A stretch of 64,000 nucleotides of DNA, taken from NCBI RefSeq assembly GCF_003334355.1, contig NZ_QOWP01000016.1; one strand, given 5' to 3'. The notes beneath the pieces were generated by a model. The model did no database searches and was not told the origin of the DNA. It saw nothing but the letters and a program-made list of their open reading frames with translations. The translations under genes were made by a program, and so were the position numbers. Of this stretch, positions 47,824 through 55,002 are shown in pieces (within the stretch, counting starts at the first letter, position 1; each line of letters begins with the position of its first letter). Source of the stretch: Escherichia coli (GTDB taxonomy: Bacteria; Pseudomonadota; Gammaproteobacteria; Enterobacterales; Enterobacteriaceae).

Positions 47824-49902
47824 TTAAATCAATGCCGATTTATCAATTCCCAGCCGCTTCATCCGTGACAGCAGGGTCGTGCGTTTCAGCCCCAGACGTT
47901 GCGCAGCGCCTTTAGGCCCGGCAACCACGCCGTTGGTTTCTTTCAGCACGCGCACAATCAACTGATATTCATCTTCGCCCTCCTGGGCGACAACCGTTGC
48001 GGCAGGCGGCGTTTCAGGTTCCGGTAAAACAATATCTGGCAATGACAGCTGCAGCACGTTACCGCGTGTTAGCAATACCGCGCGCTCAATGACGTTTTCC
48101 AGTTCGCGTACGTTACCCGGCCACTCCATGTTGCTCAAGGTGCGCAGCGTCTCGGCAGGAATGCTGTCGATATTGCGCCCCAGACGACGGGCAATTTTGA
48201 AGGTAAAGGCTTTCGCCAGCAGCGGAATATCTTCCGGACGCTCGCGTAGTGGCGGCAGGTGAATCGGGAATACGTTCAGGCGGTAATAGAGATCGCTACG
48301 GAACTCACGGTCGGCGACCATTTTTTTCAGATCGCGGTTAGTCGCGGCGATTAGACGCACGTCCGTCTGAATGATTTTGTTGCTGCCGAGACGTTCAAAC
48401 TCCTGTTCCTGCAATACACGCAGCAACTTCGGCTGTAACTCCAGTGGCATATCGCCCACTTCGTCGAGGAACAGGGAGCTTTTATCCGCCAGTTCAAAAC
48501 GACCGATACGCTGGGCGCTGGCACCGGTAAAAGCCCCACGCTCATGACCAAACAGATCGCTTTCCAGCAATCCGGCAGGCATCGCCGCGCAGTTCATTTT
48601 GACCATGCGGCGATTATTACGCCCACTGAGATTATGGATCGCACGGGCAATCAGCTCTTTACCCGTGCCAGTTTCACCGAGGATCAGCACGGTACTGTCA
48701 CTTTGCGCCACCATTTCAACTTGTTTAAGCACGCTGTACATGGCTTCGCTGCGGCCAATAATCTCGCCAAATTCACTATCAACATTGTTGAGCTGCTCGG
48801 TCAGGGCGAGGTTTTCATCAACCAGCCGTTCTTTCAGACGATGGATTTCCTGATAGGCGAGGGCGTTATCGACAGCGATTGCCACACGTTCGGCAATCTG
48901 GCGCAGTAAATTCAGATTGGTAGTGGTAAACACTTTCTCTTCGCATTGCGCCAGTTTCAGCACGCCCAGCATGGTGTCGCCAGACATCAGCGGTAACAGG
49001 CACAAGGTTTGAATCTGGTTGCCCCAGGTGTCGAACAACATGCGTTCATAGGGGGCTAAATCGTCCCGCTCGTGGAGATTGATCAGCAGCATCTCTTTAC
49101 TTTTGAACACGCGTTCGGTGAGGGTTCCGGCTTCATCGACTTCGCTCTGTTCGTGGGCGGGATGCTGTTTATCAAGATAGTGAGTGGAGTAGATGTTGAG
49201 TTTGTTTTTACGGTGGCTGCGTAAGACGATACTGATATCGTCAATGTCGAAATAGTAATGGATTTCTTTGGCGACTTCGCTGACCAGTTCGTCCATATCC
49301 AGGCGGGAAAGCACCGCGTTGGTGATGGCGACCAGGATGCGGAAGTTATCGCGTTCCCGGCATAACAACTCATAGTCGACATTGTTAACGACGCGGCTCT
49401 GGATTTGTTCGGTGACGACAGAAACGATCTGCGTAAATGTTTGCAGACGATTGAACTCTTTTTCGCTCCAGGGGCGATCGTCATAACGAATAAATTCACA
49501 GCCACCAAAAATATGCCCTTCCGCCGCCAGTGGCATCAGGCAATAGTGACCAAATTTTGGGTATAGCCCACCTGCGGCCAGCTGCGGCCAGGTTTCACAA
49601 AATTCTTCGTAACTGCAATGCAGCGTATCAGGGCGCGACAAAATGCTGCGTACCGGACCGTGTGCCAGAACAGTTTCGTCTTCATATTTAATGGGGGTGT
49701 CTTTTTCACGCGACGCGTAATAAGACGCACGTTGAGTCTGCGCTTGCCACAACACAATAGCCGCGTTGTCGGCGAGCGCAGAACGCTTTACCAGTTGCGA
49801 AAGAGCCTCACACAGCGAGGCCAGATCGGGCTGCTGCAATAGTGTCCGAGTGATGTCGAACAACCCTTGTTGTCCGAGATCACTCATCGGTGTATATGAC
49901 AT
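47824..49902 (-). CDS. fhlA: Formate hydrogenlyase transcriptional activator (sigma-54 enhancer-binding protein)
   Basis: 692 aa from MSYTPMSDLGQQ; AAA+ motif GETGTGKE; C-terminal HTH. Confidence 0.93.
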   Translation of the reverse strand: MSYTPMSDLGQQGLFDITRTLLQQPDLASLCEALSQLVKRSALADNAAIVLWQAQTQRASYYASREKDTPIKYEDETVLAHGPVRSILSRPDTLHCSYEEFCETWPQLAAGGLYPKFGHYCLMPLAAEGHIFGGCEFIRYDDRPWSEKEFNRLQTFTQIVSVVTEQIQSRVVNNVDYELLCRERDNFRILVAITNAVLSRLDMDELVSEVAKEIHYYFDIDDISIVLRSHRKNKLNIYSTHYLDKQHPAHEQSEVDEAGTLTERVFKSKEMLLINLHERDDLAPYERMLFDTWGNQIQTLCLLPLMSGDTMLGVLKLAQCEEKVFTTTNLNLLRQIAERVAIAVDNALAYQEIHRLKERLVDENLALTEQLNNVDSEFGEIIGRSEAMYSVLKQVEMVAQSDSTVLILGETGTGKELIARAIHNLSGRNNRRMVKMNCAAMPAGLLESDLFGHERGAFTGASAQRIGRFELADKSSLFLDEVGDMPLELQPKLLRVLQEQEFERLGSNKIIQTDVRLIAATNRDLKKMVADREFRSDLYYRLNVFPIHLPPLRERPEDIPLLAKAFTFKIARRLGRNIDSIPAETLRTLSNMEWPGNVRELENVIERAVLLTRGNVLQLSLPDIVLPEPETPPAATVVAQEGEDEYQLIVRVLKETNGVVAGPKGAAQRLGLKRTTLLSRMKRLGIDKSALI

Positions 49903-52376: not shown

Positions 52377-53239
52377 CGCTGTGTCTCCAGCCAGTTCAGC
52401 CACTGGTCCATCCCTTCGCCGCTGGTGGCGGAAATAAGGATGATTTCAATTTCTGGATTGACTTCGCGGGCGCAGGCGATGCACTTCTCAACGTCAAAGT
52501 TGAGATACGGCAGCAGGTCAACTTTGTTGAGCAGCATCAGCGAGGCGGCGGCAAACATATGCGGATATTTCAGCGGTTTGTCTTCACCTTCGGTAACGGA
52601 AAGCACCGCCACTTTGTGTTTTTCACCGAGATCGAAGCTGGCCGGGCATACGAGGTTGCCAACGTTTTCGATAAACAGAATACCGTTATCGTCCAGTGGC
52701 AGGCGCGGTGCGGCGTCGGCAATCATCTGTGCGTCAAGATGGCAGCCTTTACCGGTATTCACCTGAATCGCTGGTGTGCCGGTAGCGCGAATGCGTGCGG
52801 CATCGTTCACGGTTTGCTGGTCGCCTTCAATAACTGCGCACGGAACGCTGTCTTTCAGGCGCATTAGGGTTTCCGTCAGCAGGGTGGTTTTACCGGAACC
52901 AGGGCTGGAAACCAGGTTGAGCACCAGTTGCTTGCGGGCAGCAAAGCGCGCGCGGTTGCGTTCAGCCAGACGGTTATTTTTGTCCAGCACGTCAATTTCG
53001 ACTTCCAGCATCCGACGCTGGCTCATGCCCGGTGCGTGAGTGCCCGCTTCGCCATGACCGTAATGCAGGTCGCCTTCTTCAGTCTGGCTGGGGGTAAATT
53101 CAGGCGCTTTAATGCCGGTGATTTTCATCTTCGGGCGTGCCGCCGGGGCAAATGGCGCGCTACGAAACGCGGAATGAGGGTTATGTTCATCACCCTCGAT
53201 ATACAGGTTGCCTTCACCGCAACCGCATGTTGTACACAT
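52367..53239 (-). CDS. hypB: Hydrogenase nickel-incorporation GTPase HypB
   Basis: 290 aa; His-rich N-terminus; P-loop GSGKTT. Confidence 0.93.
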
Positions 53240-53242
53240 CGC

Positions 53243-53593
53243 TCACTCCTGGTCTATTTCTATCCGCCGAATCTGTAAACCGTCGTCTGCCACAATCTGC
53301 AGCATGTCACCATGACACTGTGGACAGCGGCGGACGCGCTGGGTCAGTAGCGTCACATACTGTTGGCATGTTTCACACCAGCATTCGGCCTCTTGTTCTT
53401 CGAGGTGCAGTTTACAACCTTCCGCCACGCTGCCGCGGCAAACCAGATCAAAACAAAAGGCAAGAGAGCTGGTTTCGACACAAGAAAATGCGCCAATTTT
53501 GAGCCAGACCCCAGTTACGCGTTTTGCGCCGTGTTTTGCGGCCTGCTGTTCGATCAATTCCAGTGCCCGTTGGCAGAGGGTTATTTCGTGCAT
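53243..53593 (-). CDS. hypA: Hydrogenase nickel-insertion protein HypA
   Basis: 116 aa from MHEITLCQRALELIEQ; CxxC pairs; GGGAGG upstream. Confidence 0.92.
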   Translation of the reverse strand: MHEITLCQRALELIEQQAAKHGAKRVTGVWLKIGAFSCVETSSLAFCFDLVCRGSVAEGCKLHLEEQEAECWCETCQQYVTLLTQRVRRCPQCHGDMLQIVADDGLQIRRIEIDQE

Positions 53594-53624
53594 ATCGCCT
53601 CCCATTAACTATTGCCAGCTACAA

Positions 53625-53640
53625 GCAATAATTGTGCCAG
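53625..53640 (-). promoter_or_regulatory. Sigma-54 type promoter (-24/-12) upstream of hypA
   Basis: Minus strand reads CTGGCACAATTATTGC: GG and GC separated by 10 nt. Confidence 0.55.
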
Positions 53641-53669
53641 TGTTGATTATCCCTGCGGTGAATAATGTC

Positions 53670-53694
53670 GATGATGTCGAAATGACACGTCGAC
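53670..53694. promoter_or_regulatory. Candidate FhlA upstream activating sequence in the hypA-hycA intergenic region
   Basis: TGTCGAAATGACACGTCGACA; resembles the CGAAAATGACA motifs near 54327-54370. Confidence 0.4.
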
Positions 53695-53752
53695 ACGGCG
53701 ACGAAATTCATCTTTAGCTTAAAAATCTCTTTAATAACAATAAATTAAAAGT

Positions 53753-53769
53753 TGGCACAAAAAATGCTT
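53753..53769 (+). promoter_or_regulatory. Sigma-54 type promoter (-24/-12) upstream of hycA
   Basis: TGGCACAAAAAATGCTT: GG and GC separated by 10 nt, about 40 bp before the hycA ATG. Confidence 0.55.
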
Positions 53770-53804
53770 AAAGCTGGCATCTCTGTTAAACGGGTAACCT
53801 GACA

Positions 53805-54266
53805 ATGACTATTTGGGAAATAAGCGAGAAAGCCGATTACATCGCACAGCGGCATCGTCGCCTACAGGACCAGTGGCACATCTACTGCAATTCGCTGGTT
53901 CAGGGGATCACGTTATCGAAAGCGCGCCTGCATCACGCCATGAGCTGCGCGCCGGACAAAGAACTCTGTTTCGTCCTTTTTGAACATTTTCGCATTTACG
54001 TCACCCTGGCGGATGGCTTTAACAGCCACACCATCGAGTATTACGTCGAAACAAAAGATGGCGAAGACAAACAGCGGATTGCGCAGGCGCAACTGAGCAT
54101 TGACGGCATGATTGATGGCAAGGTCAACATCCGCGATCGCGAACAGGTTCTGGAACACTATCTCGAAAAAATCGCTGGCGTTTACGACAGCTTATACACC
54201 GCTATTGAAAACAATGTGCCGGTGAATTTAAGCCAACTGGTAAAGGGACAAAGCCCGGCAGCATGA
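53805..54266 (+). CDS. hycA: Formate hydrogenlyase regulatory protein HycA
   Basis: 153 aa. Confidence 0.92.
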   Translation: MTIWEISEKADYIAQRHRRLQDQWHIYCNSLVQGITLSKARLHHAMSCAPDKELCFVLFEHFRIYVTLADGFNSHTIEYYVETKDGEDKQRIAQAQLSIDGMIDGKVNIRDREQVLEHYLEKIAGVYDSLYTAIENNVPVNLSQLVKGQSPAA

Positions 54267-54314
54267 GCTGAGGCTTTGCCCGTTTTGCAGGCGTTACGCC
54301 TGTTTGGGGATGGG

Positions 54315-54372
54315 CGTGTCGATGAGTGTCGAAAATGACATTTCATCGGCATGTTTTCGTCAAAAATGACAA
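54315..54372. promoter_or_regulatory. Direct repeats of a CGAAAATGACA-like motif between hycA and hycB (candidate FhlA UAS)
   Basis: TGTCGATGAGTG, TGTCGAAAATGACA and CGTCAAAAATGACA. Confidence 0.45.
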
Positions 54373-54390
54373 TCACCTGAGGAATGCCTG

Positions 54391-55002
54391 GTGAATCGTT
54401 TTGTAATTGCTGACTCCACGCTCTGTATCGGCTGCCACACTTGTGAGGCCGCCTGTTCAGAGACGCATCGCCAGCACGGCCTGCAATCAATGCCGCGCCT
54501 GAGAGTGATGCTGAATGAAAAAGAATCTGCGCCGCAGCTCTGTCACCACTGTGAAGATGCACCCTGCGCGGTGGTCTGCCCGGTTAACGCCATCACCCGC
54601 GTTGATGGGGCCGTGCAGTTGAATGAAAGCCTGTGCGTAAGCTGCAAGCTGTGCGGCATCGCCTGCCCGTTTGGCGCAATTGAATTTTCCGGCAGCCGTC
54701 CGCTGGATATTCCGGCAAACGCCAATACCCCGAAAGCGCCACCGGCACCGCCTGCTCCGGCGCGTGTCAGCACATTGCTTGACTGGGTGCCAGGTATTCG
54801 CGCGATCGCCGTCAAATGTGACCTTTGTAGCTTTGATGAACAAGGTCCGGCCTGCGTGCGGATGTGCCCGACTAAAGCCCTGCATCTGGTGGATAACACT
54901 GATATCGCCCGCGTCAGCAAACGTAAGCGTGAGCTGACTTTTAACACGGACTTTGGCGATCTCACCTTGTTTCAGCAGGCTCAAAGTGGAGAGGCTAAAT
55001 GA
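54391..55002 (+). CDS. hycB: Formate hydrogenlyase Fe-S subunit HycB
   Basis: 203 aa from GTG 54391; multiple CxxCxxCxxxCP ferredoxin motifs. Confidence 0.93.
   Translation: MNRFVIADSTLCIGCHTCEAACSETHRQHGLQSMPRLRVMLNEKESAPQLCHHCEDAPCAVVCPVNAITRVDGAVQLNESLCVSCKLCGIACPFGAIEFSGSRPLDIPANANTPKAPPAPPAPARVSTLLDWVPGIRAIAVKCDLCSFDEQGPACVRMCPTKALHLVDNTDIARVSKRKRELTFNTDFGDLTLFQQAQSGEAK

Follow-up and report, generated by a model that had tools for sequence, protein, structure and literature searches.

Divergent sigma-54 promoters and predicted FhlA enhancer sites in the hyp-hyc control region of Escherichia coli

The DNA from hypA to hycB in a 64,000-nucleotide stretch of an E. coli genome (hereafter the window, meaning the whole stretch that was analysed) is, with high confidence, the hyp-hyc control region of the formate regulon, comprising divergent sigma-54 promoters and FhlA enhancers (Table 1). 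Window positions 53560–54420 are 100% identical, base for base, to hypA-hycA-hycB of E. coli K-12 MG1655, and all 5426 of the 5426 complete E. coli genomes carry the region. The two promoters drive hyc, the hydrogenase-3 operon, and hyp, the operon for hydrogenase maturation, and FhlA is their formate-sensing activator. This control region is already known, and confirming it brings no new biology. What we add to the knowledge from K-12 is comparative: conservation of the elements in 80 species, indels by whole helical turns, and a near-invariant FhlA site (site B).

Regulation of hyp and hyc was reportedly dissected by the Böck laboratory between 1990 and 2000, in papers that include Lutz et al. 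1990 (Mol Microbiol), Schlensog et al. 1994 and Hopper et al. 1994 (J Biol Chem), and Leonhartsberger et al. 2000 (Eur J Biochem). FhlA footprints on the hyp-hyc and hycA-hycB spacers are reportedly found in Schlensog et al. 1994 and Leonhartsberger et al. 2000; our full-text search of open-access papers returned no description of FhlA footprints in the hyc/hyp region.

The gene names hypA, hycA and hycB, given in an earlier note made from the letters of this DNA, proved right by RefSeq annotation of identical DNA and by NCBIfam equivalog matches. The annotated hypA start is the ATG at 53593, which differs from that of the longer open reading frame reaching 53605. The hycA gene stands between the two enhancer clusters. 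For comparison across species, we used a set of 80 Enterobacteriaceae species with conserved hypA-hycA-hycB order, in which the only conserved spacer sequence consisted of the promoter and FhlA blocks, an IHF-like box, the ribosome sites and the start codons.

Table 1. Features of the hyp-hyc control region, with positions counted from the first letter of the window.
Feature	Position	Strand	Basis
hyp operon sigma-54 promoter, -24/-12 element TGGCACAATTATTGCT, GG-N10-GC	53624–53639	minus	RpoN matrix 18.8, ChIP-seq peak OS28, conservation
hyc operon sigma-54 promoter, -24/-12 element TGGCACAAAAAATGCT	53753–53768	plus	RpoN matrix 15.1, ChIP-seq peak OS27, conservation
Predicted FhlA enhancer (upstream activating sequence), array TGTCGATGATGTCGAAATGACACGTCGACA of TGTCG/CGACA-type half-sites	53666–53694	.	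FhlA matrix, conservation
IHF-like box TAACAATAAATTA	53735–53747	plus	One mismatch to WATCAANNNNTTR; in A/T-rich tract abutting hyc -24 element
Predicted FhlA enhancer site A, TGTCGATGAGTGTCGAAAATGACA	54317–54340	.	FhlA matrix, conservation
Predicted FhlA enhancer site B, TTTCGTCAAAAATGACA	54355–54371	.	FhlA matrix, conservation, core common with fdhF upstream region
hypA CDS, first gene of hypABCDE-fhlA	53246–53593	minus	K-12 annotation of identical sequence; NCBIfam HypA match 9.5e-73
hycA CDS, anti-activator of FhlA	53805–54266	plus	NCBIfam HycA equivalog 1.3e-90; K-12 annotation
hycB ribosome-binding site (TGAGGA) and GTG start codon	54378–54393	plus	K-12/RefSeq annotation; conservation
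fhlA, activator gene, in the same 64 kb window	47827–49902	minus	NCBIfam equivalog, 1548 bits vs cut-off 830

Two divergent sigma-54 promoters

The two promoter elements were the best matches in the window to a published RpoN matrix built from 186 promoters (PMC7658346 Table 2), TGGCACAATTATTGCT and TGGCACAAAAAATGCT taking ranks 1 and 2 of 128,000 window positions. From the exact score distribution, 0.015 matches would be expected in the whole window at scores of at least 18.8, and 0.5 at scores of at least 15.0. Both elements carry a -24 GG and a -12 GC, 10 nt apart in TGGCAC-N5-TTGCW, and at both hycA and hypA the orientation and the short distance to the gene fit a sigma-54 promoter. The hycA-facing element, TGGCACAAAAAATGCT(T), lies exactly where it had been read from the letters (53753–53769, plus strand). 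The element facing hypA is present on the minus strand as claimed, although it had been placed one base off (at 53625–53640). The bare 9-base core TGGCAC-N6-TGC, allowing at most one mismatch, is not rare in the window (23 found vs 24.6 expected), so the significance of the two elements rests on the full matrix score together with placement and conservation. A scan of 53200–54700 for sigma-70 promoters and terminators gave nothing above shuffle expectation.

Occupancy of both elements by sigma-54 is supported by ChIP-seq (Bonocora et al, 2015, PMC4591121), with peak OS27 at hycA 91-fold above threshold and OS28 at hypA 201-fold, and the table of that paper flags both as experimentally confirmed in EcoCyc. 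Our elements coincide with the OS27 and OS28 motif centres, which are 128 bp apart in the ChIP-seq table and in the window alike. Transcription is predicted to start near 53779 for hyc and near 53613 for hyp, leaving 26 nt to the hycA ATG and 20 nt to the hypA ATG; these distances equal those in the same table (Bonocora et al, 2015, PMC4591121). Genomic SELEX agrees on sigma-54 at the hycA and hypA promoters, and in Salmonella, ChIP-chip with microarray data showed that the orthologous promoters bind sigma-54 and assigned them to FhlA.

Among the 80 species, every one (80/80) kept the hyc promoter at a score of at least 13.4, with the -12 GC 36–39 nt from the ATG, and every one (80/80) kept the hyp promoter at a score of at least 15.1, with the -12 GC 29–36 nt from the ATG (44 in one species). 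In the alignment, GCAAT and TGCCA, as well as TGGCA and TGCTT, were conserved at 95% or more. Matrix scores, K-12 ChIP-seq motifs and conservation agree on the divergent pair that the earlier note had proposed. The primary mapping of transcription starts at these promoters is reportedly that of Lutz et al. 1990.

The hyc -24 element is abutted by an IHF-like box, whose consensus in the 80-species alignment is AATCAAnnnnTTAAAA. The strict consensus was present in only 26/80 species and a relaxed form in 31/80; the remaining 23 had none, while the tract was always A/T-rich and always abutted the -24 element. The K-12 hydN promoter is abutted by the same IHF-like box. IHF is reported to bind at the hyc promoter region (Hopper et al. 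1994).

A further candidate, a sigma-54-like motif inside hycA (53874–53889), was considered as an internal promoter that would transcribe hycB-I without the anti-activator, and was rejected as a selected feature. Its -12 GC is lost in 18/80 species, TGC and TGT are used at its Cys codon in a ratio (62:18) equal to that at the other Cys codons of hycA (60:20 and 41:12), and ChIP-seq shows no separate peak for it; the motif looks like a coding by-product. The hyp operon has a known internal promoter, for which we sought an FNR box (TTGAT-N4-ATCAA, at most 2 mismatches) in hypA, finding none within 53243–53605.

FhlA sites between the promoters and in the hycA-hycB spacer

Scanning the window with a published FhlA matrix placed its top two matches at 54327–54340 (17.3), within site A, and at 53666–53679 (16.0), within the array between the promoters; the matrix was made from 13 characterised sites, very probably including these, and the top scores are therefore partly circular. 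Site B scored 12.0 on both strands (54358–54371). The TGTCG...GACA motifs fit the published palindrome TG(A/T)C-(A/G)A(A/T)(A/G)AT-G(A/T)CA. The 16-mer CATTTCGTACGAAATG, which PMC4987338 quotes as the consensus of Leonhartsberger et al. 2000, is, taken literally, a poor descriptor that fails to discriminate the sites: its best local match was GTTTTCGTCAAAAATG at 54353–54368, with 5 mismatches, and the window held 15 such matches. This has no bearing on the footprints themselves.

TGTCG/GACA motifs between the two promoters, as the earlier note had stated, are present at 53666–53694. Lying upstream of both promoters, the array has its centre ~98 bp from the predicted start of hyc and ~68 bp from that of hyp. 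Within it, the 13-mer palindrome TGTCGAAATGACA at 53675–53687 is the sole exact copy in the window, other matches having 2 mismatches (3 in total vs 1.8 expected). Its centre was misjudged at 6 nt and is actually 5 nt; both spacings were seen at the orthologous site in other genera. Nor are the sites 11–13-mers, as had been thought: each is larger, and both spacers carry the composite TGTCGATGA(G)TGTCGAAA(A)TGACA.

The direct repeats claimed for the hycA-hycB spacer (54315–54372) are borne out as sites A and B, with GTCGAAAATGACA at 54328–54340 and GTCAAAAATGACA at 54359–54371, 31 bp apart. These two were the only matches to GTCRAAAATGACA with at most one mismatch in the 64 kb (0.17 expected), and two such matches were reached in 0/100 shuffles. 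Loose matches to the 13-mer, with 3 mismatches, were near expectation (27 vs 20). Site A differs from the composite of the hypA-hycA spacer by two single-base insertions and is the core of an imperfect palindrome of 37 nt (54316–54352). Counted from the hyp -24 element, site B is ~720 bp upstream; counted from the hyc start, it is ~580 bp downstream.

All three blocks are conserved in the 80 species, the array as a block and site A as TGTCGA-N4-TGTCG(A)AAaTGACA. The core of site B, TCGTCAAAAATGAC (54357–54370), was exact in 78/80 species; by position, conservation was at least 95% over 54357–54370, 80–95% at T54356 and 60–80% at T54355. The full TTTCGTCAAAAATGAC of site B, a near-invariant 16-nt block, was unchanged in 19/20 sequences of one alignment set. 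This conservation is stricter than that of either promoter. From the start of site B to the hycB start codon the distance is 34 nt, held in 67/76 species, and the hycB start region itself is conserved as CCTGAGGA...GGTGAA in the 80-species alignment.

Spacer lengths fell into classes ~11 bp apart (45–47/56–58; 48/59–62/70–71; 27–31/39–40), as expected for proteins confined to one face of the helix. The distance from the array to the -24 element of either promoter varies only in such ~11 bp steps, and site A is separated from site B by either 39–40 or 27–31 bp. The length classes follow clades, so the independent indel events are few, perhaps five or six rather than 80. Long-range phasing of the hycA-hycB sites with either promoter was not seen in the 80-species set, where their distance to the hyp promoter ranged over 657–742 bp.

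Sequence related to these sites also precedes other FhlA targets. The core TTTCGTCA / CGTCAAAAnTGAC is common to the site motifs and the upstream region of fdhF, where TTTCGTCACGTCAAAACTGACGA and TTTTTCGTCA lie ~70–95 bp upstream of the -24 element; hydN carries TGTCGATGACA-type repeats, and the match at hyfA is weaker (TGATCAAGATCACA). The matrix matches, the 80-species conservation and the core shared with fdhF together support the idea, raised in the earlier note, of FhlA enhancer sites that act at a distance.

Assignment of the sites and alternative readings

In the mechanism that we propose, partly from the literature, sigma-54 RNA polymerase would sit in closed complexes on the two divergent -24/-12 promoters, 128 bp apart. 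FhlA, whose gene closes the hyp operon, would bind TGTCG/CGACA-type half-sites at the one inter-promoter array and at the two hycA-hycB sites, and formate-bound FhlA would then open the promoter complexes through ATP hydrolysis and DNA looping. At hyc, looping over ~100 bp from the spacer array may be aided by an IHF-type bend beside the -24 element, while the hycA-hycB sites would form a remote enhancer ~720 bp from the hyp promoter. With fhlA as the last gene of hyp and the anti-activator gene hycA as the first of hyc, the region would form one positive and one negative loop.

That the hycA-hycB sites serve the hyp promoter is not derivable from sequence. It is possible, though on the whole doubtful, that these sites instead act on hyc, from a place downstream of its promoter, or join the spacer array in acting on both promoters, in which case the array would also serve hyp from ~68 bp. 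It is an established property of enhancers for sigma-54 activators that they function whatever their orientation and on whichever side they lie, and the array is in as strict a register with the hyp -24 element (45–47 or 56–58 bp) as with that of hyc. In every species, moreover, the hycA-hycB sites are nearer to the hyc promoter (~540–625 bp) than to the hyp promoter. On the other hand, an activator centred ~45–57 bp from a -24 element is unusually close for looping unless the DNA is strongly bent. The division of labour reported by Schlensog et al. 1994 and by Leonhartsberger et al. 2000 also speaks for separate enhancers, the hycA-hycB site reportedly being needed for activation of hyp and the hypA-hycA spacer site for that of hyc.

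As the spacer array is in register with both promoters and TTTCGTCAAAAATGAC is fixed 34 nt before hycB, the architecture may go beyond one enhancer per promoter. We think it unlikely that the TTTCGTCAAAAATGAC block serves twice, on the DNA as an FhlA site and in the hyc mRNA as an element for translation or stability; if true, activator occupancy and hycB expression would be coupled in one sequence.

It is in our judgement also quite unlikely that the conserved hycA-hycB blocks act mainly at the RNA level, as a hairpin or linear element for hycB translation, mRNA processing or stability, with an enhancer role that is secondary or absent. The blocks do sit within the hyc transcript, and site B has both its stricter-than-promoter conservation and its fixed distance to the start of hycB. 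The spacer RNA of E. coli is more stable than its shuffles (z = -4.2; 0/200 as stable) and can form a 15-pair hairpin over 54316–54352, and two-sided changes in the palindrome affected 5 pairs vs 2.3 in shuffles, a value reached by 1/500 shuffles. However, the RNAalifold consensus showed essentially no covariation (term -0.28; one compensatory pair), only 74% of the palindrome cells pair, and the right arm is deleted in the Enterobacter/Lelliottia group. That deletion, of ~11 bp, keeps sites A and B on the same face of the helix, which points to a constraint at the DNA level. In addition, the same composite stands untranscribed between hypA and hycA, where it precedes both predicted starts, fdhF is preceded by a related core, and site B has no partner strand in conserved sequence. 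With so little covariation, and an E. coli hairpin weakly supported across genera, we rejected RNA structure as the explanation of the hycA-hycB spacer.

That the motifs are functionless chance matches in A/T-rich intergenic DNA has next to no probability, since the near-expectation counts of the one-mismatch sigma-54 core and the 3-mismatch 13-mer are set against full-matrix scores far in the tail and a repeat pair absent from all shuffles, and the idea is refuted by the conservation of all elements in 80 species, where the surrounding spacer is not conserved, and by the ChIP-seq data showing sigma-54 at both sites in vivo (Bonocora et al, 2015, PMC4591121).

Relation to known systems and meaning

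Read as divergent sigma-54 promoters with FhlA enhancers, the region matches the K-12 hycA/hypA promoters of the formate regulon in locus, genes, sigma-54 motifs and 128-bp spacing, with no sequence difference. Two other FhlA/sigma-54 units share parts of its layout: fdhF has the promoter TGGCATAAAAGATGCA and, in its upstream TTTCGTCACGTCAAAACTGACGA and TTTTTCGTCA, the core of site B, and hydN-hypF combines TGTCGATGACA-type repeats with the arrangement TAAATAACAGTAAATTAAAAACTGGCA, in which an IHF-like box abuts the -24 element as at hyc. Unlike hyp-hyc, both have a single promoter and one upstream enhancer, with neither a divergent partner nor a remote enhancer in a neighbouring operon. The norR-norVW, zraP-zraSR and glnA NtrC enhancers resemble hyp-hyc in that activator sites are shared between or near divergent promoters and the activator loops in from a distance. 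Their activators and motifs differ (the NorR motif, for example, is GT-N7-AC), and in none of them is the enhancer known to lie across a whole gene inside an oppositely transcribed operon, as it does at hyp-hyc.

Formate hydrogenlyase and the maturation proteins of all E. coli hydrogenases are made under the control of this region, a classic case of a bacterial promoter activated by an enhancer on the far side of a gene. Raw sequence sufficed to recognise its sigma-54 promoters and activator sites with an error of no more than one base. The helical-turn indels, a site under stricter conservation than the promoters, and the IHF-like box common to hyc and hydN could help to engineer hyc and hyp expression for hydrogen production.

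Sigma-54 promoters facing hypA and hycA

Both GG-N10-GC elements that an earlier note placed facing hypA and hycA are present, its coordinates being right to within one base. When both strands of the 64-kb window were scanned at every position with an RpoN matrix derived from 186 promoters (PMC7658346, Table 2), as that note had proposed, the hypA-facing element ranked first (18.8) and the hycA-facing element second (15.1); the exact score distribution gives 0.015 expected matches in the window at the former threshold and about 0.5 at the latter. As the bare sigma-54 core is not rare in the window when one mismatch is tolerated (23 observed, 24.6 expected), the case for the promoters rests on the full matrix score, placement and further evidence. 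Window positions 53560-54420 are identical at every base to K-12 MG1655 (K-12 coordinate = 2904240 minus window coordinate), and a 1.6-kb query around the control region found a match, annotated hypB-hypA / hycA-hycB, in 5426/5426 complete E. coli genomes. Bonocora et al (2015) reported the sigma-54 ChIP-seq peaks OS27 (TTGGCACAAAAAATGCT, hycA, 91-fold above threshold) and OS28 (CTGGCACAATTATTGCT, hypA, 201-fold above threshold), both flagged as experimentally confirmed in EcoCyc, with motif centres 128 bp apart and predicted starts at a distance of 26 nt (hycA) and 20 nt (hypA). The motif centres in the window (53760 and 53632) are likewise separated by 128 bp, and the predicted starts lie at 53779, 26 nt from the hycA ATG, and 53613, 20 nt from the hypA ATG. 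Genomic SELEX recovers the same hypA-hycA spacer, and in Salmonella the orthologous promoters are bound by sigma-54, with the operons being sigma-54-dependent and assigned to FhlA. The identities of HypA, HycA and FhlA are backed by NCBIfam.

The two promoters also form a 27-nt inverted repeat (53613-53639 and 53753-53779, 81% complementarity). Their likeness extends beyond the -12 element and takes in a second copy of TGGCA (AGCTGGCA) at each of the predicted starts, an extension seen in Escherichia and not in Salmonella or beyond.

Features of the control region and its genes, in window coordinates
Feature	Position	Strand	Sequence or length	Remark
fhlA	47827-49902	minus		last gene of hyp operon; NCBIfam match
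hypA	annotated ATG at 53593	minus		direct sequence reading
hypA-facing GG-N10-GC element	53624-53639	minus	TGGCACAATTATTGCT	
hypA-hycA spacer			211 bp	direct sequence reading
Motif in hypA-hycA spacer	53675-53687		TGTCGAAATGACA	sole exact copy in window
hycA-facing GG-N10-GC element	53753-53768	plus	TGGCACAAAAAATGCT	
hycA	53805-54266	plus		direct sequence reading
Third sigma-54-like element, inside hycA	53874-53889	plus	TGGCACATCTACTGCA	RpoN score 15.1, equal to hycA promoter
hycA-hycB spacer			124 bp	direct sequence reading
Direct repeat, first copy	54328-54340		GTCGAAAATGACA	31 bp from second copy
Direct repeat, second copy	54359-54371		GTCAAAAATGACA	31 bp from first copy
hycB	GTG start at 54391			direct sequence reading

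Conservation across species and other sigma-54-like elements

HycA homologues are widespread in Enterobacteriaceae. Fourteen of them were aligned, and from this alignment we retrieved 80 loci from as many species, belonging to Escherichia, Salmonella, Citrobacter, Enterobacter, Lelliottia, Klebsiella, Raoultella, Kluyvera, Kosakonia, Pseudocitrobacter and other genera. Of these loci, 79/80 proved to have the hypA-hycA-hycB order, with spacers of 188-223 bp (hypA-hycA) and 67-146 bp (hycA-hycB); the remaining locus was left out as its start-peptide pattern was not found, and the analysed set of 80 comprises these 79 and the window. Both promoters are kept in 80/80 species, the hyc promoter scoring at least 13.4 and the hyp promoter at least 15.1 on the RpoN matrix, at a near-constant distance from the start codons. 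In these alignments, conservation of at least 95% within the hypA-hycA spacer is confined to the ribosome site and start of hypA, GCAAT...TGCCA (hyp promoter), the array of TGTCG/CGACA-type half-sites at about 53666-53692, part of the A/T-rich AATCAAnnnnTTAAAA box and TGGCA...TGCTT (hyc promoter); in the hycA-hycB spacer it is confined to TGTCGA-N4-TGTCG(A)AAaTGACA, the greater part of the block TTTCGTCAAAAATGAC and the ribosome site of hycB. The core of site B, a putative FhlA site (TCGTCAAAAATGAC, 54357-54370), is exact in 78/80 species, which is stricter than either sigma-54 promoter, with less strict conservation of its two leading Ts (54355-54356); in 67/76 species the block begins 34 nt upstream of the GTG of hycB. 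The first ~50 nt of the E. coli spacer directly after the hycA stop (54267-54315) are not conserved, being confined to the Escherichia, Salmonella and Citrobacter group. In E. coli this stretch contains a GC-rich hairpin (54288-54309, CAGGCG-tta-CGCCTG then TTTGGGG), which a terminator scan did not call.

The third element, made by hycA codons W24-H-I-Y-C28-N, looks like a coding by-product: it is without a peak of its own in the published sigma-54 ChIP-seq, its -12 GC is lost in 18/80 species, and its TGC:TGT ratio is that of other hycA Cys codons. Inside hycC, GTGGCGCGTTTGTTGCC (56209-56225, plus strand) is the intragenic ChIP-seq site IS31 (Bonocora et al, 2015), with a matrix score of only 11.0. 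Further exact TGGCAC-N6-TGC cores lie at 2724-2739 (minus strand, TGGCACGCCAGCTGCG, 14.5) and 58811-58826 (plus strand, TGGCACAACAGATGCG, 13.1); neither sequence was found in the tables of Bonocora et al, and about two matches scoring at least 13 are expected by chance in the window.

Putative FhlA sites, their spacing and an RNA alternative

The related motifs noted earlier between the promoters, and the direct repeats in the hycA-hycB spacer, proved to be there. TGTCGAAATGACA has 3 matches in the window against 1.8 expected, those other than the exact copy all with two mismatches, while GTCRAAAATGACA at up to one mismatch matches only the two direct-repeat copies (0.17 expected; 0/100 shuffles reached two). 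Scanning with the published FhlA matrix (13 sites), likewise proposed earlier, placed the two top window scores in the two spacers, at 54327-54340 (17.3) and 53666-53679 (16.0), with 12.0 for 54358-54371, scores that are partly circular, since characterised FhlA sites went into the matrix. The FhlA-type sites are bigger than the motif first noted, and the composite TGTCGATGA(G)TGTCGAAA(A)TGACA is common to both spacers. Across the 80 loci, the 13-mer and 14-mer palindrome versions both occur at the orthologous hycA-hycB site, so the two variants can be treated as one kind. An alternative 16-mer consensus, CATTTCGTACGAAATG, as quoted from Leonhartsberger et al (2000) in PMC4987338, needs five mismatches to fit at 54353-54368, and 14 other places in the window match it at least as well.

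Anchor-to-anchor distances across the 80 species form discrete classes that differ by roughly one turn of the helix: 45-47 or 56-58 bp between the hypA-hycA spacer array and the hyp -24 element, 48, 59-62 or 70-71 bp between this array and the hyc -24 element, and 27-31 or 39-40 bp between site A (54317-54340) and site B. Klebsiella carries a 12-nt insertion within the array. Such classes are what would be expected of bound proteins needing the same side of the DNA, which is suggestive rather than proven, and as they follow clades they amount to perhaps five or six separate events. Between the hycA-hycB sites and either promoter, the long separation varies and shows no phasing, which is what loops exceeding 500 bp would lead one to expect.

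Conservation of the hycA-hycB spacer might instead reflect RNA structure, since the spacer is transcribed. The E. coli RNA shows unusually good folding (z = -4.2) and contains a 15-pair hairpin (54316-54352) in which two-sided changes are modestly over-represented (5 pairs vs 2.3 in shuffles). However, a 20-genus consensus fold has almost no covariation, no more than 74% of the cells in the hairpin pair, and Enterobacter and Lelliottia have lost its right arm through a deletion that keeps the DNA phasing. The same motif is also present in untranscribed DNA, and together these results leave an RNA role as only a minor possibility. The hairpin interval forms an imperfect palindrome of 37 nt with site A as its core (TGTCGATGAGTGTC / GACATTTCATCGGCA), and the two arms covary weakly across genera; the palindrome could offer four symmetric half-sites to an FhlA tetramer or form an RNA hairpin.

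Regulation of the hyp and hyc operons

Among other FhlA targets in K-12, TTTCGTCACGTCAAAACTGACGA and TTTTTCGTCA lie some 70-95 bp upstream of the TGGCATAAAAGATGCA promoter of fdhF, repeats of the TGTCGATGACA type occur at hydN, and hyfA has a weaker motif match. hydN and hyc share almost the same TAAATAACAGTAAATTAAAAACTGGCA junction, in which the same IHF-like box abuts the -24 element; over 27 nt, the hydN upstream sequence TAAATAACAgTAAATTAAAAacTGGCA is near-identical to TTAATAACAaTAAATTAAAAgtTGGCA in the comparison with hyc (window 53731-53757), suggesting from sequence a common IHF-box-plus-promoter module in the formate regulon.

The hyp-hyc control system is already known, and the sigma-54/FhlA interpretation of the region is supported. 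In work of the Böck laboratory, FhlA and IHF reportedly bind in the control region, and the hycA-hycB sites are reported to belong to hyp. The established sigma-54/FhlA mechanism is the best explanation of the sequence elements, their rarity, conservation and phasing, together with the sigma-54 occupancy shown in the literature on identical DNA. Under it, sigma-54 holoenzyme would occupy the two divergent promoters, formate-activated FhlA on the spacer array and the remote hycA-hycB sites would open them through ATP-dependent looping, an IHF-type bend would assist at hyc, and feedback would run via fhlA at the hyp end and hycA at the hyc start.
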